Shown here: in pieces, positions 3,866 to 47,628 of the stretch
Layout of the letters: each line of letters opens with the position of its first letter
Numbering within the stretch: the stretch's first letter is position 1
Assembly: GCA_039090665.1 (NCBI GenBank)
Contig: JAWCSL010000001.1
Location: 1 to 64,000 of the forward strand
Origin: Candidatus Aenigmatarchaeota archaeon
GTDB lineage: Archaea > Aenigmatarchaeota > Aenigmatarchaeia > CG10238-14 > SCSR01
Length of the DNA stretch: 64,000 nucleotides
Reading direction: 5' to 3'
Program-made: the position numbers and the translations under genes
Notes under the pieces: model-generated
What the model was told of the DNA's origin: nothing
Databases searched by the model: none
The model's input: the letters and a program-made list of their open reading frames with translations, nothing else

Positions 3866-5098
3866 ATGAAAGAGTATTTTACTCTGGAAGATTTTGAACT
3901 TGAAGGAAAAACTGTTATTTTGAGAGCTGACTTGAATGCCCCTTACAACAAAGAAGAAAAAAGGATAGAAGATTGTGAAAGAATAAGAGAGCATGCAAAA
4001 ACAATTCAATTTCTTCTTGAGAAAAAAGCAAGAGTTGTTGTTCTGGCTCATCAAGGAAGGAAAGGAGACGAAGATTTCACGAGCTTAGAGCAACATGCAA
4101 AGTTTTTGAGTAAGCATTTGGTTAAAGAAGTGAAATTTGTTGGTGATGTTATTGGTGAAAGAGCTTTGAATGAAATAAAAAATTTGAAAGAAGGAGAAGT
4201 TTTGCTTTTGGATAATGTAAGGATTTTAGATGAAGAGACTCAAGAGAAGAGCATAGAAGAACATGCAAAAAGCAAGCTTGTTCAAACTTTAGCACCGCTT
4301 GCTGATTTTTTTGTTCAAGATGCTTTTTCTGCTTCTCATCGTTCTCATGCTTCAATTGTGGGTTTTGCACCAGTTTTACCAACATTAGCAGGAAAGGTTA
4401 TGGAAAAAGAATTAAGCTCAATAGAGAAGGCTATGCAATCTTTAGGAATAAATGTGTTCATCTTTGGTGGAGCAAAACCTGATGATTGTTTGAATATAAT
4501 GGAGTATTTTCTCGAAAATAAACCAGAATGTATAGAAAAAGTTTTAACTTGTGGTACAGTTGGTGAAATTTTCTTGATGGCAAAAGGTTATAAACTTGGT
4601 CAACCAACGCTCAAATTCTTTGAACAAAAAGGATTTTTGAGTTTAATATCACAAGCAAGAAAGCTTTTGGAAAAATATGAAATGGAAATTGAAGTTCCAA
4701 TTGATGTGGCTGTGGAAGAAAATGGAGAAAGAAAAGAAATCAATGTGAAAGAACTTCCTTTTGATTCTTTAATTCTTGACATAGGATGTGAAACTATCAG
4801 GAATTATGTGGAAATAATAAGAAATGCTAGAACCATAGTGATGAAAGGGCCAGCTGGAGTTTATGAGAAGAAAGGATTCGAAATTGGAACAAAAGAAATT
4901 CTTGAAGCTGTAGCTGACTCAAAAGCTTTCAGTTTAATTGGTGGTGGAGACACAGGCTTGGCAATAGAAAAGCTTGGAATTGAAAAAGAGAAATTTTCTT
5001 ACATAAGCTTGGGTGGTGGAGCTCTGATAACTTATCTTTCTGGAAAACCGATGCCAGGGATAGAAGCTTTAAAACTCTCTTACCAAAAATTCAAATGA
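3866..5098 (+). CDS. pgk: phosphoglycerate kinase
   Basis: RADLNAP, AHQGR, DAFSASHR, SLGGGA. Confidence 0.96.
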   Translation: MKEYFTLEDFELEGKTVILRADLNAPYNKEEKRIEDCERIREHAKTIQFLLEKKARVVVLAHQGRKGDEDFTSLEQHAKFLSKHLVKEVKFVGDVIGERALNEIKNLKEGEVLLLDNVRILDEETQEKSIEEHAKSKLVQTLAPLADFFVQDAFSASHRSHASIVGFAPVLPTLAGKVMEKELSSIEKAMQSLGINVFIFGGAKPDDCLNIMEYFLENKPECIEKVLTCGTVGEIFLMAKGYKLGQPTLKFFEQKGFLSLISQARKLLEKYEMEIEVPIDVAVEENGERKEINVKELPFDSLILDIGCETIRNYVEIIRNARTIVMKGPAGVYEKKGFEIGTKEILEAVADSKAFSLIGGGDTGLAIEKLGIEKEKFSYISLGGGALITYLSGKPMPGIEALKLSYQKFK

Positions 5099-38703: not shown

Positions 38704-39603
38704 TACTGAGTTATATTATTTATTTGCTCATGGGTCTTGGCGTTGGGCTTTTGATCAAGTCAAACAAGACATGAGATGAAATAGCCTATTCTGACTCATG
38801 AGATATTGGCCTGAAGTGAAAGAGCTTCAGGTAGGTTGATTGGTGAAACCTAGAGGTAGGGCCCGCCAATTCTGGTTGATCCCGCCAGAGGCCACTGCTA
38901 TCCGGCTTCGACTAAGCCATGCGAGTCGAGAGGGGAAAGCCCTCGGCGCACTGCTCCGTAATACACAGTCAACCTACCCTTAGCTGGGGGATAATCCCGG
39001 GAAACTGGGGCTAATACCCCATAGGTGCTAGGTACTGGAAGGTCCTAGCGCCGAAAGCTCCGGCGGCTAAGGATGGGACTGTGGCCTATCAGCTTGTTGT
39101 GGAGGTAAAGGCTCCACAAGGCGATAACGGGTACGGGCTATGGAAGTAGGAGCCCGGAGATGGACTCTGAGACATGAGTCCAGGTACTACGGTACGCAGC
39201 AGGCGCGAAAACTTCTCAATGCTCGCAAGAGCGAAGAGGGAAGCCGGAGTGCCCTTGCTCTGCAAGGGCTTTTGCGGTCTGAAAACGGGACCGCGAATAA
39301 GGGGTGGGTAAGACGGGTGCCAGCCGCCGCGGTAATACCCGCGCCCCGAGTGGTGGCCACGATTATTGGGCCTAAAGCGTCCGTAGCCGGTCTGGTAAGT
39401 CCTCAGTGAAATCCTCTAGCAAACTAGAGGGCTTGCTGGGGATACTGCCAGACTTGAGACTGGGAGGGGGCAGGGGTACTCCCAGGGTAGGGGTGAAATC
39501 CTGTAATCCTGGGGGGACCACCTGTGGCGAAGGCGCCTGCCTGGAACAGGTCTGACGGTGAGGGACGAAAGCTAGGGGAGCGATCGGGATTAGATACCCC
39601 GGT

Positions 39604-39682
39604 ACACGAGGTTGGGTATCTTCTGATTTAAAGATGAAGAAAAATCCCAACTCAAGCTAGGATTTCCTAACTCGTGCGGGAA
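39604..39682 (+). ncRNA. 16S BHB intron 1 (after Ec U801) with K-loop and antisense elements
   Basis: CCCG/CGGG helix, GTA and AAA bulges; removal restores GATACCCCGGTAGTCC. Confidence 0.9.
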
Positions 39683-40082
39683 AGTCCTAGCCGTAAACGA
39701 TGCCCGCTTGGTGTTGCAAGCTTCTCGGGAGCTTGCAGTGCCGAAGCGTAGGTGTTAAGCGGGCCGCCTGGGGAGTACGCCCGCAAGGGTGAAACTTAAG
39801 GGAATTGGCGGGGGAGCACACAAGGGGTGGGCGTTGCGGTTCAATTGGATTCAACGCCGGAAATCTTACCAGGGCCGACGGCAGGATGAAGGTCAGTCTG
39901 AAGGGCTTACCAGACGAGCCGAGAGGTGGTGCATGGCCATCGTCAGCTCGTACCGTGAGGCGTGCGCTTAAGTGCGTTAACGAGCGAGACCCACACCCCA
40001 TGTTGCTAACTGCTTCTCCGGAAGCAGTGCACTCATGGGGGACCGCTGGCGATAAGCCAGAGGAAGGAGTGGGCGACGGTAG

Positions 40083-40170
40083 ACAGGTAAAAGGCTCAAG
40101 ACCGATTCATGTGAAAAAAAGATGAGCATGAATATCGCCCAGAGCCGTACATGTCTTTTACCTGACCGAA
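40083..40170 (+). ncRNA. 16S BHB intron 2 (after Ec 1197), H/ACA-like hairpin
   Basis: CGGT/ACCG helix, AGA and AAG bulges; removal restores GACGGTAGGTCCGTATG. Confidence 0.9.
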
Positions 40171-40451
40171 GTCCGTATGCCCCGAATGCCCTGGGCCACA
40201 CGCGACGCACAATGCGCGCCACAATGGGATGCGACCCCGAAAGGGGAAGCAAAGCCCCTAAAAGCGCGCTCAGTTCGGATCGAGGGCTGTAACTCGTCCT
40301 CGTGAAGCTGGAATCCCTAGTAAGCGAACGTCATCATCGTTCGCTGAATACGTCCCTGCTCCTTGCACACACTGCCCGTCAAGCCAATCGAGCGGAACTC
40401 CATCGAGGCTTGCGATGAGCAAGTCGAGTTGGAGTTCTGTGAGAGGGGCTA

Positions 40452-40557
40452 ATCTTGGGGGTCCAGAAAAAAATAATATGAAAGAATTGGCTTGACTCTG
40501 ATGTGATGATGAGATGGAGGTGAGTTGATTGCTTGTATGGACCTCCCAAGAGCCTAA
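40452..40557 (+). ncRNA. 16S intron 3 (between Ec A1492/A1493) containing a full box C/D sRNA
   Basis: GGGC/GCCT helix, TAA and AAA bulges; removal restores GGGGCTAAGTCG; C, D', C' and D boxes present. Confidence 0.9.
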
Positions 40558-40832
40558 AGTCGCCACAAGGTAGCCGTACGGGAACGTGCGGCTGGATCAC
40601 CTCCTTACGTGCAACCCTACCTCAGGCACCATAAACAACCCTACCTGAAAGAATTTTCCTTTTTATCAGTACCAAAGTAAAAAAAATTAAGCTCGAATCT
40701 TTACCATTATCCTCAAATTTTTCAATTCTTTTCTTAAACTGTTTTCAAAAAGCTTGTGTTAACTAAAAACTAAAATAAATGAGAGAAAAATAGCTACCGA
40801 GCTTATAAAATAATAAAAATTGGGAAACCATT

Positions 40833-42851
40833 TCAAGCAAGAATAGCATATCTAGCGATCAAAGAAGCAAAGACAGAAGCTGTTAAAGACATGACTGTTA
40901 TCATTGTGTTCAAACTTGGTCCTGCTGTGTCCTTGAAAGGATCACCAACAGTATCACCAACAACAGCAGCCTTATGAGCTTCTGAACCTTTTCCACCAAA
41001 AGCCCCTTCTTCTATCAGCTTCTTAGCATTGTCCCAAGCTCCACCAGAATTTGCCATGAAAAGAGCAAAAATTATTCCTGTGATTATACTTCCTGCTAAA
41101 AAGCCCGCTAAAGCCTCTTTTCCCAAAATGAAGCCAACAAGCAAAGGTGCAGCTATAGCAAGCAAACAAGGAAGCATAAGCTCTCTTAAAGCACCTTTAG
41201 TTGCTATGTCCACGCATTTGGCATAATCAGGTTTAGCTTTTCCTTTCATCAATCCAGGAATTTCTTTAAATTGCCTTCTCACTTCTTCTATCATACGAAA
41301 AGCATTTCTCCCTACTGCCAAAATCAATAAAGCCGAAATCACAGGAGGCATCATGCTACCAATAAAAGTCCCAACTATAACCTTAGGCTCCATCAAGTTT
41401 ATTGAAAACAAACCAGTAGTCAAATCTTTCCTTATTTCAACAACTTCAGCGTAAGCCCCAAGCAAAGCCAAAACTGTTAAAGCTGCAGCACCAATCGCGA
41501 AACCTTTTGTTATTGCTTTTGTTGTATTTCCCAAAGCATCAAGTCTGTCTGTAATTTCCAAGACTTTGCCTTTCAAACCAGCTTGTTCCGCTATTCCTTT
41601 TGCATTATCGACAATTGGACCATAAGCATCAGAAGAAATTATCATTCCAACTATTGCTAACATACCCACTGCTGCTATAGCCACACCATAAAGATTACTT
41701 ACACCGAAAGCCCCTGCAAGATGCCAAGCTGCAAGCATTGCTACACAAATTCCGATGATTGAAGGTACAATGCTCAAGATTCCATAAGAAAAGCCTGAGA
41801 GGATGTTGATAGCAGCTCCTGTTTTTGCAGCTTCTGCTGTTTTTTTCACAGGAGCTTTATCGATTGATGTATAGTAGTTTGTTGTTATTCCTATAATCAT
41901 GCCAGATATAAGTCCAGCTAAAGTTGGTAAGAGAACACCAAAAGTTTGGTTTCCAAGTTCAAGAGCTTGAATCACAAAAAATGTTAAAATTGCAAAAATA
42001 AAACAAGTGGAAAAGGTTCCAACATTCAACGCAAGATTAGGGTTCTTTTTCTTGGCCAAATTGACGAAAATTAAACCAAGAAGAGAGGAAAAAATCCCAG
42101 CAGCTGCTATCAACAAAGGCAAGAAGATAAAGCTTGGAGCAATTGCTTTCCCAATTATCATGGCAGCTATGATGCTTGCTATGTAAGAATCTATCAAGTC
42201 AGCACCCATTCCTGCAACATCACCCACATTATCACCCACATTATCAGCAATAACAGCAGGATTTCTTGGGTCATCTTCAGGAATTTCCATTTCCACTTTT
42301 CCCACCAAATCAGCTCCAATATCTGCTGTTTTAGTGTAAATGCCACCACCAGCTTTTGCAAACAAAGCCAAAGCACTTGCACCAAAGCTGAAACCCAAAA
42401 CAATCTCAGGATCTTGGTAAATTTGGTATAAAATGCTTATGCCAAGCAAAGCTATGCCAACTATCATTAAACCCATGATGGCCCCACCATAAAAACCAAC
42501 AGAAAAAGCTTTTGCTAATCCTTTTCTTGCTGCATTTGTAACCCTAACATTTGTTTTAACTGCTGCCAGCATTCCAAAGTAGCTTGCTATAGCAGTGGAA
42601 AAAGAGCCAAGCAAGTAGGCTAGAGCTATGTCTGGGCTTAAGAAGAGAAAAATAAGAGTTGTCATGATGACAACGAAAATTGCCAAATAAAGATTTTGCC
42701 TCTTCAAGTAAGCTTTTGCTCCCACTTTTATCGCTTCAGAAATTTCTTCCATTTTTTTGGTTCCCGGGCTTTGTTTGCTCACATGGAAATACAAGTAACA
42801 AGCTGTGAAGATCGAAGCTAAGCCTGCGATTGTTGGGATTGAAGCAAACAT
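40833..42851 (-). CDS. hppA: membrane-integral pyrophosphatase (GNTTKA, K+-independent type)
   Basis: [39 protein letters not shown]. Confidence 0.96.
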
Positions 42852-43786: not shown

Positions 43787-43858
43787 GGGCCGGTAGATCA
43801 ATGGTAGATCGCCTCGCTTGCAACGAGGAGGCTCCGGGTTCAAATCCCGGCCGGTCCA
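43787..43858 (+). tRNA. tRNA-Ala(TGC)
   Basis: GGGCCGG/CCGGTCC acceptor with G3:U70; CCTCG-CTTGCAA-CGAGG. Confidence 0.96.
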
Positions 43859-43885
43859 TCAATGAAATTTTATTAAATTTAAATT

Positions 43886-43900
43886 CGAAATCTTTATAAA
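43886..43900 (+). promoter_or_regulatory. BRE/TATA promoter of the 23S unit
   Basis: CGAAA-TC-TTTATAAA ~25 nt before a GCCGGTG...CATCGGC hairpin. Confidence 0.6.
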
Positions 43901-43973
43901 TACAAAATACAACTTATTTATTTGCCGGTGTCAGTATGTCTGCTTAATTCGAGCATCGGCTTTCTTTATTTTA

Positions 43974-44033
43974 GCGATGAGCTTTGTCTTTCTCTGCTGA
44001 CAAAAAAGATGAAGATGTGGACACCTTGTGAGC
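43974..44033 (+). ncRNA. candidate box C/D sRNA in the 23S leader (A)
   Basis: C ATGAGCT 43977, D' CTGA 43997, C' ATGAAGA 44009, D GTGA 44028; 12-13 nt spacers. Confidence 0.65.
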
Positions 44034-44080
44034 AAGCTGCATGCAACTCCTTATTGAAAGAATAAGGGGTGAAGAGTGGA

Positions 44081-44141
44081 GGTTGATGATAACATTTATT
44101 CGCCTGAAAAAAGATGAAGAGCGAACTGTCTATTTGAAACC
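44081..44141 (+). ncRNA. box C/D sRNA in the 23S leader (B)
   Basis: GGTT/AACC terminal stem; C ATGATAA, D' CTGA, C' ATGAAGA, D TTGA; guides match 16S 39293-301 and 23S 47193-202. Confidence 0.82.
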
Positions 44142-46181
44142 ATAAGATGACACTACCACAGGATCAAGGAGGTCACTAAGGCCTAACAAGCTGACCCCAC
44201 TTGGTGGATAGCTTGGCTTCGGAGCCGAAGAAGTACGTGGCAAGCTGCGATAAGCCTGGGGTAGCCGCATGCAGGCGTAGATCCCAGGATCTATGAATGC
44301 GAATCGCTGGCTTCGGCCAACTCCGAAAGGAGGGGGAACGCGCTGAATTGAAGCATCTTAGTAGGCGCAGGAAAAGAAATCAAATTGAGATGCCGTTAGT
44401 AGGGGCGACCGAAAGCGGCAGAGGGCAAACCGAACTGGTTGGCGAAGAGCCAAACAGGATGTGGAGTTGTAGGACCTGTGTCCTTCCTATCCTAGCCGAC
44501 CTGAAGTCTGCTGGAAAGCAGCGCCAAAGAGGGTGATAGCCCCGTAAGGGAAGGCTAGGAGGAAGATGGCAGGTATCCTGAGTACCATTTCCTGGATGGG
44601 AAGTGGGAAGCTGGGTGAATTAACATCCAACCCTAAATACTCCCGAAGTCCGATAGCGAACTAGTATGGTGACAGAAAGCTGAAAAGCACCGCGAAAGCG
44701 GGGTGAAAAGAGCTTGAAACCAAGTGGGGATAGTCAGACACGGCCCGGAAGGTGCTCCTTCGAATGAAATCCGAAAGGAGAGTAAGAGAAGGAGCTTACA
44801 GGGTCGTGTCGTCCGTGCGGAAACACGGGGCAGGGAGTTTGTCTCAGTGGTGAGGTTAACTTGCTTTCACAAGGTAGCCGGAGCGAAAGCGATTAGCCCG
44901 CAACTGTTCTTTATGGACAGTGAGGGGCAGGGTATGAAAGTGCCTGAAATCACTGGGACAAGACCCGAAGCCAGGCGATCTAACCCTGGGTAAGGCGAAG
45001 TCCCTCGAAAGGGGGATGGAAGCCTGCTACCGGTGCTGAGTTACAAATCGCTCGGGTGACCTGGGGTTAGTGGTGAAAAGCCTAACGAGCCTGGCGATAG
45101 CTGGTTCCTCCCCAAATGCACGTCAGTGCAGCCTGGTCGGAGGTAGGCAATGGGGTAGAGCTACTGATTGGAAGGTCAAGGACCGAAAGGTTCAGCCTTC
45201 CTGTCAAACTCCGAATCCATTGCCACCTGAGAAGACCGGAGTGAGGGTGCTGGGGTAAGCTCGGCACTCGAAAGGGGAACAACCCAGCCTAGGGTTAAGG
45301 TCCCTAAATGCTAGCTAAACGCTGAAGGGTGTCTGAACCCTCAGACAGTAGGGCTGTAGGCTTAGAAGCAGCCATCAGATAATAAGTGCGTAACAGCTTA
45401 CCTACCGAGGGTTCGGGCCCCGAAAATGGAAGGGACTAAGCTAGCTACCGATACCCTAGACCGCGAAAGCGGGGGTAGGGAGGCGTCCTGCATGGGCAGA
45501 AGCCTCTGCGTGAGCAGGGGTGGACCGTGCAGGATTGAAGATCCTGCCGAAAGTAACAGCAAAGTTAGGTGAGAATCCTAACCACCTGAAGCCTAAGGGT
45601 TTGCCAGCAATGTTGGTCAGCTGGCAGTTAGCCGGTCCTAAGGGTGCTCTTAACCGAAGCACTCGAAAGGGAAAGCCGTTAATATTCGGCTGCCATGGGG
45701 ATACGTGCGGCGACGCAAGCCAGTTTTCCGACGCTTCGGGATAGGCAGACGCAAGCTAACTGCCGAAGTGAGCGGAGTCTCTTAATGAGGAGAAGCTCAT
45801 GAAGGCAGGAATGGCTCCTCGTATGAGGAGTTCTGCTGATTCCTGGAGCCCGTGAAAAGGAAAACTGGAAGGATTCCCCATGACCGTACCGAGAACCGAC
45901 ACAGGTAGGCTTGCCGAGAAGGCAAAGGTGTGTTGGGAGAACCCAGCCTAGGGAAATCGGCAAGTTGGCCCCGTATCTTCGGTAGAAGGGGTGCCTGTTC
46001 TCTCGCAAGGGAGAGCAGGTCGCAGTGACAAGGGGGAAGCGACTGTTTAACAAAAACGCTGGAGACCGCAAGTCCGAAAGGATGTGTACGGTCTCTGATG
46101 CCTGCCCAGTGCCGGTGTGTGAAAGCCCGGTTCAACGGGAAGAAGCCCCGGCAAACGGCGGCGGTAACTCTGACCGTCGTA

Positions 46182-46231
46182 ACTCAAGGCGGTCATTTGA
46201 TTTAATGATATTCCGCTGCCTTGGGCGGCAT
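46182..46231 (+). ncRNA. 23S intron (after Ec A1927) with D'/C' guide for H69
   Basis: GTCG/CGGC helix, TAA and ATA bulges; GGCGGTCA antisense to 46171-78. Confidence 0.85.
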
Positions 46232-46360
46232 AAGTAGCGTAATCCCTTGCCGTTTAAATGACGGCCCGTCTGAACGGCTTAACGACTTCCCCACTGTCCT
46301 GGGCTGGGACCCAGTGAACTCGCCTTTCCGGTGAATAGGCCGGAGACCTCCTGTGGGAAA

Positions 46361-46391
<31 letters not shown>

Positions 46392-46545
46392 GTGTTGTGG
46401 TAAGGTTGTGACTGCATAGAGTAGGTAGGACTCGCTATTAGGCTGAGGCTTCGGCCGAAAGCTGAGAGGAAAGTGTAACACTACCCTTTCGCAACCTTAC
46501 CGCTAACTCGAAAGAGGACAGCACCAGATGGGCAGTTCGGCTGGG

Positions 46546-46631
46546 AGTCTAGAAGTCTAAATGAGGAGTCCCTTAAGTTATGATTTTTTATGATTAAGGG
46601 CATACGAACCGAAAGGCTTCTAGACCAGCAA
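46546..46631 (+). ncRNA. 23S P-loop intron (Ec G2252/G2253) containing a full box C/D sRNA targeting 16S
   Basis: GCTG/CAGC helix, GGA and AAG bulges; removal restores GGCTGGGGCGG. Confidence 0.93.
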
Positions 46632-46686
46632 GCGGTACGCCCTCGGTAAAGGATCGAGGGCGCCCAAAGGTCAGCTCATCCGGGTC

Positions 46687-46775
46687 ATGGTAGAGTCTAG
46701 TAAATGATTGGACCGTTCCAGAATGATCTTAATGATTTCTGAGGTAGCTGATGAGAATAGGCTCTACCACCCGCA
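46687..46775 (+). ncRNA. 23S H84 intron (after Ec ~C2306) containing a box C/D sRNA
   Basis: CGGG/CCCG helix, TCA and CAA bulges; removal restores CCGGGTCAGAAATCCGG. Confidence 0.9.
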
Positions 46776-46919
46776 AGAAATCCGGAGTAGAGTGTAAGCG
46801 CAAAAGCTGGCCTGACTGGATTCCGCAAAGCGAGGAATCCAGCCGCGAAAGCGTGGGCTAGCGATACTTCGGTTCCTCTTAATGGGGGCCGGAGGTATCA
46901 GAAAAGCTACCTCGGGGAT

Positions 46920-46973
46920 AAACTAGCTAGGGCTGATTAAATTATTTTTCTTCATATCTAGCTAGTTCCCTAA
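46920..46973 (+). other. 23S hairpin intron after Ec U2449
   Basis: GGGG/CCCT helix, ATA and AAA bulges, 10-bp AACTAGCTAG stem; removal restores GGGGATAA. Confidence 0.88.
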
Positions 46974-47001
46974 AATGGGCCCGTGGCCGGCGAAAGCCCA
47001 C

Positions 47002-47072
47002 TGCTCGAAGGGGTTTTTCGTCCCAAAGATAGCGAGCCTCGGGTTCTGAACTCGAGCCCTTCGCGCGGGTAA
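47002..47072 (+). ncRNA. 23S H89 intron (after Ec ~2477) with antisense elements to the PTC
   Basis: GCCC/GGGT helix, ACT and AAA bulges; removal restores GCCCACATTGACCC. Confidence 0.88.
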
Positions 47073-47628
47073 ATTGACCCGGCGCGTTGGTGCGTCGATG
47101 TTGGCTCCCCCTCTCCTGGCCGTGCAGCAGCGGCCAAGGGTACAGGTGCCCACTGGTTAAAAGGGGACGCTAGCTGAGTTCAGAACGTCGTGAGACAGTT
47201 CGGTCGCTATCTACAGGAGGTGCTGGTCGTCTGACCGGAAGGAAGGGTTAGTACGAAAGGAACACCCTTCCGTGGCCTCTGGTCTACCGGTTGTCCATTT
47301 GGCATCGCCGGGCAGCCAAGCCATACGTGGATAAGAGCTGAATGCATCTAAGCTCGAAACCACCCGGAAAAATAGACGACCACTCTTGCTACTGGTGCGC
47401 AAGCATCGGTGGCAAGACGAAGGCCCCTGTAGACTACAGGTTTGATAGGGGAGAGGTGTAAGCCTCAAGCTTTCGAGCGAGAGGCGAGCCTGCTCCTACT
47501 AAAAGCCTGAGTTGTTAGGCCTTGATAAGCTCCTTGATCCTGTGGTAGTGTGAAAAAATTCTGATTCTCCCAAAAATATATACTAGAGTAGAGAAAACTT
47601 ATTTAATTGTCACTACATAGTAGTTATT

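Follow-up and report, generated by a model that had tools for sequence, protein, structure and literature searches.

The 23S rRNA locus and its leader

The window, i.e., the whole 64,000-nucleotide stretch of DNA analysed here, lies on contig C1 of an archaeal assembly (G000; 620,606 bases, completeness 90.6%). The top six taxon-named relatives among the matches listed for its fibrillarin all belong to Candidatus Aenigmatarchaeota, and the host, an archaeon with a small genome, is taken to belong to this DPANN phylum. The 16S (38869-40605) and 23S (44179-47522) rRNA genes are unlinked, with a 672-codon membrane protein gene in between (40833-42851), which by its look we take to be a membrane H+/Na+ pyrophosphatase. 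This gene parts the 16S gene from tRNA-Ala (43787-43858) and the 23S gene, an arrangement resembling the remnant of a linked operon. The tRNA-Ala is located immediately upstream of the 23S promoter, whose TATA box is TTTATAAA at 43893, and transcription would start near 43922-43926. Of the 23 leaders parsed by script, 14 likewise have a TATA-like 8-mer 26-37 nt 5' of their first element; a sigma-70 promoter scan was set aside as unsuited to archaea. The 23S leader spans from about 43925 to the processing stem, and the following features were annotated at the locus and at the proposed target sites:

39293..39301, + strand: 16S site proposed for the sRNA B D' strand, probably incidental
43885..43900, + strand: BRE-like purine run and TATA box of the stand-alone 23S gene, read from the sequence
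43925..43960, + strand: conserved 5' stem element GGTG...TATG...CAT[CT]GG, seen by eye in most relatives
43971..44036, + strand: sRNA A, predicted box C/D unit (covariation, target co-change, sequence)
sRNA A, 5' half, + strand: C ATGAGCT 43977-83; D' strand 43984-96; D' CTGA 43997-44000
sRNA A, 3' half, + strand: C' ATGAAGA 44009-15; D guide 44016-27; D GTGA 44028-31
44041..44079, + strand: conserved ATGCA-hairpin-GAAG element between sRNA A and sRNA B
44081..44141, + strand: sRNA B, predicted box C/D unit (covariation, target pairing, sequence)
sRNA B, 5' half, + strand: C ATGATAA 44086-92; D' strand 44093-103; D' CTGA 44104-07
sRNA B, 3' half, + strand: C' ATGAAGA 44114-20; D guide 44121-33; D TTGA 44134-37; stem GGTT/AACC
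44151..44178, + strand: 5' arm of the 23S processing stem and bulge-helix-bulge (BHB), read from the sequence, cut between 44177 and 44178
47144..47153, + strand: predicted target of the sRNA A D guide, 23S A-loop (helix 92), U47147 = E. coli K-12 U2552
47193..47202, + strand: predicted target of the sRNA B D guide, 23S helix 93 (E. coli 2598-2607), N+5 A47195 = E. coli A2600
47523..47552, + strand: 3' BHB and 3' arm of the 23S processing stem, cut after 47528

The processing stem pairs 44151-71 with 47530-47552 and holds a canonical BHB (44172-78 / 47523-29). The original prediction had placed two box C/D sRNAs between the TATA box (43893) and the processing stem (44151), and all of these features were found at those positions. 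It had further proposed that the sRNAs are co-transcribed with pre-23S rRNA; since only 13 nt lie between the D box of sRNA B and the stem, and no further TATA box was seen in the leader, the anatomy would force such co-transcription. Both additional leader elements (43925-43960 and 44041-44079) recur phylum-wide. When the hairpin at 44041-79 was read as an H/ACA guide, no site of the G000 rRNAs fitted a bipartite pocket around a U with 3+3 and at least nine pairs; Cbf5 gave a match over the cut-off in G000, with one stop within the match.

RNA reads of three runs (X9, X10 and X11; 150-nt random libraries, 3-5% of each run read) were placed on the locus. In X11, where 11,803 of the 417,901 placed reads are at least 99% alike, 438 reads join 47528 to 44178, and the 23S introns are missing from reads that span them. 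This 23S is thus expressed, spliced and circularised, at least in a close relative. A fifth 23S insertion (47001-47076) is skipped by 1,579 X11 reads. Depth is zero over 43834-44101 in all three runs and about 600 at the 23S start in X11. No stable leader RNA with a length of at least 150 nt was seen; RNAs of 60 nt would not be expected in such libraries, and the reads neither show nor refute sRNAs of about 60 nt. Runs with a small share of the lineage gave no evidence on habitat.

Concerning the protein machinery, fibrillarin and Nop5 are encoded side by side in G000. L7Ae was not found in this 90.6% complete assembly, which is taken as an assembly gap because L7Ae is over the cut-off in 59 of 59 relatives; a PF01248 match in G000, a 94-aa protein between the RNA polymerase A'' and NusA-like genes, was rejected as L7Ae and read as L30e. 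The RlmE/RrmJ model TIGR00438 was over its cut-off in none of 60 genomes of the order (best 28 bits), with a model that matched in 11 of 14 controls and exceeded the cut-off in two. A Pfam FtsJ search returned weak generic methyltransferase matches only (best 37.5 bits). Apparently, a leader guide does the job of RlmE/RrmJ, an enzyme not found in the closer relatives searched.

Architecture and predicted targets of the two leader units

Both units share the same anatomy. Under a kink-turn reading each C box is preceded by a GAT bulge, and a terminal kink-turn with stem, 3-nt bulge, tandem G·A and flanking pairs is present in each. The internal boxes D' (CTGA) and C' (ATGAAGA) are canonical and the strands between boxes measure 11-13 nt. 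Four clean boxes had been credited to sRNA A; this is correct for the internal D'/C' pair, while the terminal C and D boxes of the units are degenerate and deviate from consensus in compensating pairs. Terminal kink-turns were aligned for 23 B and 33 A units, long-insert units being excluded. For sRNA B (22 distinct rows), 22 cells are changed on both sides, as high a count being reached by 0 of 500 shuffles, and 91% are paired against 33-59% when the structure is slid; for sRNA A (33 rows) the respective values are 48 cells, 0 of 500 shuffles, and 81% against 29-39%. The slid comparison favours the structure, because the latter was drawn from those very sequences. Judging by this covariation among relatives, both sRNA elements are to be regarded as real box C/D-type units, and it is very likely that they serve as C/D RNP guides.

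Rfam gave no gathering-level match within the leader, and weak sub-cut-off matches of C/D families over both units, which were given no weight. Covariance models built for A and B each gave one strong match in G000. Applied to 151 genomes of the phylum, the A model matched in 31 genomes of the order and in one outside it (G142, E 0.003), and missed most of the leader guides of other orders. The G142 match (L279, G142:C1:160775-160835) is a free-standing four-box C/D sRNA away from the 23S gene, with a D guide that looks aimed at 23S ~2440, and the 23S leader of G142 has no U2552 guide. A metagenome scan gave 119 loci, 37 of which precede a 23S gene, all closest (73-99%) to references of the phylum in a reference set that included no other archaeal phylum. 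A loose pattern scan of genome contigs returned at least 120 loci; the 80 matches listed comprised bacteria and one haloarchaeon and were taken as chance.

The D guide of sRNA A forms 9 of 10 pairs with the A-loop, with an A·C mismatch at guide position 7 against C47149 (2554), two bases from the target. The 23S numbering at 2541-2614 was verified directly, in a spliced 23S model that retained the fifth intron (47002-72). The original prediction had instead offered weaker, adjacent candidate targets for sRNA A at 23S 45916-31; matches do exist there (7 Watson-Crick pairs for the D guide, a broken 5 plus a G·U for the D' strand), but the A-loop outscores 45925-31 for the D guide. Taken alone against the rRNAs of G000, this D guide is equalled by 153 of 400 shuffles. 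A search of G000 for a better guide to the A-loop found none.

Comparison within the order was based on 39 leaders, 30 of them loci from a search of 60 relatives and nine fetched separately; one spurious parse within a 23S gene and L084, the third rRNA operon of a mixed bin (G005), linked and without guides, were excluded. The contigs of this bin were each handled separately; it holds at least four different 23S operons (contigs C3/C14, C26, C29, C50), hence its mixed nature. An A-type unit is present in 38 of the 39 leaders (37 parsed, that of G027 recognised by eye and by the model) and absent from G012. The invariant portion of the guide is GG(A/G)CACC, always two bases 5' of box D, and since the spacing from guide core to D box is identical in 37 of 37 parsed units, N+5 always falls on U2552. 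Guide position 7 and rRNA position 2554 read A/U in 21 of 35 operons of the order, G/C in nine, A/C in five and G/U in none; it is thus Watson-Crick in 30 of 35, and contiguous pairs number only 7-8 in many. The uncompensated A·C cases are G000, its three congeners and genus g38, which is why the guide of G000 falls one short of ten pairs. Mapped onto a 23S tree, the A guide changes five times and the target seven times; with only three independent concordant pairs and no discordant one, the test is not significant (p 0.25). The target of sRNA A, missed by the original prediction, would be U2552 in the A-loop, its most conserved one. That a leader guide makes Um2552 in the lineage is likely, and for G000 itself, given the A·C mismatch, the odds lie slightly in favour.

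The 10/10 pairing of sRNA B with 23S 47193-202, with N+5 at A47195 (A2600), was correctly predicted: all ten pairs are Watson-Crick and only 8-13 of 400 shuffles are as good. Specifically, CGAACTGT is complementary to 2600-2607 and the two bases that follow it extend the duplex over 2598-2599, and this is the only D guide or D' strand of G000 that outscores shuffles when strands are taken singly against its own rRNAs. A helix-93 guide occurs in 37 of the 39 leaders of the order, as 28 stand-alone B units, one unit read by eye (G027) and eight D' guides of an A unit; it is missing from G039 and G044. The latter eight leaders form family f4, in which one dual-guide sRNA couples U2552 and A2600. 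The N+5 site is A2600 in 23 of the 28 stand-alone units and in all eight f4 units, 2601 in three and 2599 in two; the leaders of genus g6, read by eye, also give 2601. As N+5 slides one base either way, the comparison suggests that helix-93 pairing is more conserved, and matters more, than the exact methyl site, and guidance of Am2600 by sRNA B seems an even bet. The seven-species table of PMC4644070 lists no target at alignment positions 2874/2875 (= 2600/2601) and one at 2873, mapped to E. coli by a constant offset of 274 from two anchor positions. In several relatives (loci L067, L068, L069, L070, L072, L073, L082, L083, L059) an intron ends just 5' of A2598 and the helix-93 guide pairs right up to the splice junction.

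For the D' strands of sRNA A and sRNA B no conserved rRNA target was found. The 16S target proposed for that of sRNA B (39293-301) does offer 8 Watson-Crick pairs and one G·U, with N+5 at A39297 (E. coli A495 by alignment; ~496 in the original prediction), but 96 of 400 shuffles are as good. Seven or more contiguous Watson-Crick pairs occur in only 3 of 16 genomes, all belonging to the genus of G000 (three of its four, at 7-8 pairs); the pairing is broken beside the target in the congener G007 and missing in 12 of 12 genomes outside the genus. Guidance of 16S Am495 by this strand is rather doubtful. The sRNA A D' strand is equalled by 204-268 of 400 shuffles. Two functional guides in one unit are seen only in the eight f4 leaders. 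D' strands tend to be complementary to the D guide of their own unit (p≤0.1 in 17 of 28 B units and 11 of 27 non-f4 A units, a moderate signal): the 3' end of the sRNA B D' strand is so in 4 of 4 congeners, and that of sRNA A (43984-96) partly so. In some A units the D' strand looks like a helix-93 guide that has decayed, as might result from duplication of an f4-like dual guide. Single-guide sRNAs are common elsewhere, with 28% orphan guides in Pyrobaculum (PMC6009581). The core idea of the original prediction, that the pre-rRNA supplies guides, holds, although two of its three target calls fail.

The predicted U2552 guide across the phylum

Leaders of other orders (34 read, spread over families, from genomes with a 23S match) were also compared. 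The U2552-guide motif followed by two bases and NNGA is present in 27 of the 34; the reverse strand gives one such match, and 500 shuffles average 0.87 and never exceed 5. The guide usually reads GAACACC, and the A-loop reads GGUGUUC in all 19 genomes for which both could be read, a co-change at 2555; in these 19, N+5 is U2552 with 8-10 paired positions. In linked operons (G081, G100, G131, G136, G116) the guide is located in the spacer 5' of the 23S gene. Seven leaders lack the motif; the A-loop could be read for five of them, and 2552 is A or G in 5 of 5. These represent fewer than five events, since four families are involved and G114 and G115 share one loop. The loci with A or G at the near-universal U2552 are L326, L332, L328, L342 and L334, the G114/G115 loop being strongly divergent.

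Genus g6 keeps U2552 in the four genomes parsed, and a plain hairpin stands in its leader in place of sRNA A. Among the five g6 genomes with an assembled 16S gene, three have an intron after 16S position 1363 that contains the U2552 guide together with boxes C and D, and two do not. This intron guide is a minimal single domain of box C, guide and box D only (L491, G073:C1:173536; L495, ~3930-4010; L494, 1-70). For g6 genomes G012 and G091, where U2552 is kept or maybe kept, no guide was found in the rRNA regions read nor by a strict pattern. The U2552 guide is thus kept in the leader or spacer across most of the relatives sampled in the phylum, and it appears to track the A-loop, changing with the loop and being absent from all five genomes read in which 2552 is not U.

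A proxy scan of 22 leaders of other orders against the rRNA of the window gave mostly single, noise-level matches for further guides. By eye, leaders L282-L321 show recurring antisense-like motifs beside boxes, namely GACGGTCA (23S ~1920), GTTATCC (~2449), ACCGTCCC (P-loop) and GCTGTTCAGAGT.

Proposed mechanism, alternatives and known systems

We propose, with a probability of roughly 0.78, that the 23S precursor hosts its own modification guides in its 5' leader and that these act as single-guide C/D RNPs. The proposal builds on the observed anatomy, covariation, target complementarity and co-change, machinery genes and BHB circularisation. Each unit would fold a terminal kink-turn (C/D) and an internal C'/D' motif and bind L7Ae, Nop5 and fibrillarin. 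sRNA A would direct 2'-O-methylation of the A-loop at U2552, replacing RlmE/RrmJ, while sRNA B would clamp helix 93 (2598-2607) and probably methylate A2600; the D' strands, without a conserved rRNA target, would tend to pair weakly with their own D guides. Because the BHB cut requires the 3' arm, the leader should remain attached until the whole 23S is transcribed, so that guides would be present at one per 23S and could still be tethered at the moment their targets appear. Circularisation of the 23S follows the cut, and the leader would then probably be trimmed to RNPs of about 60 nt. A wider and more tentative reading, to which we give somewhat less than even odds, is that the Aenigmatarchaeota pre-23S leader or spacer is a conserved host of peptidyl-transferase-centre guides: each 23S would come with one U2552 guide, held on the transcript up to BHB cleavage, the precursor would modify and chaperone itself in cis, and guide modules would exchange places between the leader and introns of the rRNA genes, separate from or join into dual-guide units, and be dropped along with the target U.

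The boxes could instead be structural kink-turns of the rRNA leader only, L7Ae sites that aid processing, with incidental complementarities. In favour of this, Tang et al. in 2002 reportedly described box C/D-like motifs that bind L7Ae in the ligated spacers of archaeal pre-rRNA. Those motifs are kink-turns in rRNA flanks freed by BHB cleavage, like the leader units; unlike these, which are complete four-box units with covarying guides, they are reportedly not complete guides with a defined rRNA target. Single-sequence significance is also weak for three of the four strands of G000. Such a role is largely refuted by the co-change of guides with the A-loop at 2554 and 2555, the loss of the guide with the U and its relocation to an intron; moreover, no leader-trailer kink-turn, with box C in the leader and box D in the trailer, can be drawn in relatives, whose trailers show no conserved GA after the stem. 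We consider it very improbable. Conventional dual-guide sRNAs, B also methylating 16S A495 and A methylating near 23S 45916-31, are quite unlikely. The 16S match does stand beside a perfect CTGA and recurs in three of the four genomes of the genus, and the guide may be young and genus-limited; its shuffle score, its break in G007, its absence outside the genus and the self-complementarity of the B D' strand in all congeners speak against it, as does the higher score of the A-loop for guide A.

Finally, the units may be mainly U3-like folding chaperones tethered in cis. They would keep the A-loop and helix 93 open while the 23S assembles, disappear together with the degraded leader, and bring about hardly any methylation or none. 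Such a role is compatible with the guide explanation and most plausible for sRNA B, whose N+5 slides over 2599-2601 around a constant pairing core and whose site has no predicted counterpart at 2600/2601 in the table cited above. It would also agree with two lineages putting up with the A·C mismatch, with the zero leader reads and with both targets pairing within the peptidyl-transferase centre. A pure chaperone, however, needs neither an invariant spacing of guide A to box D nor a loss of the guide that tracks the loss of the U, and from the 16S intron the guide could act only in trans. As the main function of the units we hold it to be rather unlikely, and the guide explanation is preferred.

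Guides for U2552 are already known in archaea. U2552 is a predicted sRNA target in five of seven archaea, with Um2552 guides in Nanoarchaeum equitans (sR10), Sulfolobus acidocaldarius (sR7), Methanopyrus (sR17) and Ignicoccus (sR33) (PMC4644070), and Pyrococcus abyssi has sR25 (PMC2584109). They share the four-box anatomy, the N+5 rule and the target with the leader guide, and the D' guide core of N. equitans sR10, GTGAACACC, is also the core of the leader guides of other orders (PMC4644070). sR10 joins U2552 to a site in helix 93 (2606), and a single sRNA of family f4 likewise combines U2552 and A2600; here, in contrast, the helix-93 site is 2600 and in the family of G000 the guides are split over two single-guide units. 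The known sRNAs are listed as ordinary sRNA genes, whereas the leader guide sits inside the 23S precursor that it would modify. Guides hosted by other transcripts include sR50 in the tRNA-Trp intron, a tRNA-Met intron guide of N. equitans and tRNA-sRNA dicistrons (PMC7994747, PMC3491384). As proposed for the leader guides, these are carried in a stable-RNA precursor, are released by its processing and can target their own host; in our case the host is a pre-rRNA leader or spacer, the unit is not itself a BHB intron and its place is conserved across the phylum. Elsewhere Um2552 is made by RlmE/RrmJ (bacteria, Haloferax), Mrm2, Spb1 and yeast snR52 (PMC2584109), which share the product predicted for the leader guide and are stand-alone enzymes or a nuclear snoRNA. 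Archaeal sRNA contexts described in these and related sources comprise independent genes, ORF overlaps, clusters, tRNA dicistrons and tRNA introns (PMC4644070, PMC7994747, PMC8339473, PMC6009581, PMC3491384, PMC2584109). Across these sources and a term search of PMC3608112, which gave no matches, with subscription literature thinly covered and absence from print thus unproven, no report of guides in rRNA leaders or of Aenigmatarchaeota sRNAs was found. Box C/D guides and Um2552 are already known; what appears to be new is the leader as the home of the guide and its phylum-wide retention.

With a leader-hosted guide, guide and rRNA would be made in a fixed ratio of one to one, and the guide may be able to act in cis during transcription. 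Such a guide is also proposed to explain how DPANN archaea with small genomes retain a near-universal A-loop modification without RlmE. Additionally, the dual guide, the split guides, the intron-relocated guide and the guide lost with its target base constitute a natural series, in which one can ask how guide RNAs arise and move, and whether it is methylation or chaperoning that matters.

Other rRNA segments of the window bear similar motifs. By eye, three rRNA introns (40452-40557, 46546-46631 and 46687-46775) show four-box C/D anatomy and clear rRNA matches, respectively to 16S near 1408 and its 3' end, to 16S near 912 and 1202, and to 23S near 2441. The 16S leader (38727-38860) contains the box-like motifs ATGAAAT, CTGA, ATGAGAT and CTGA at short spacing, as well as a GGCGTT motif that is conserved in family f1 and complementary to 16S CAACGCC near 39851-57.
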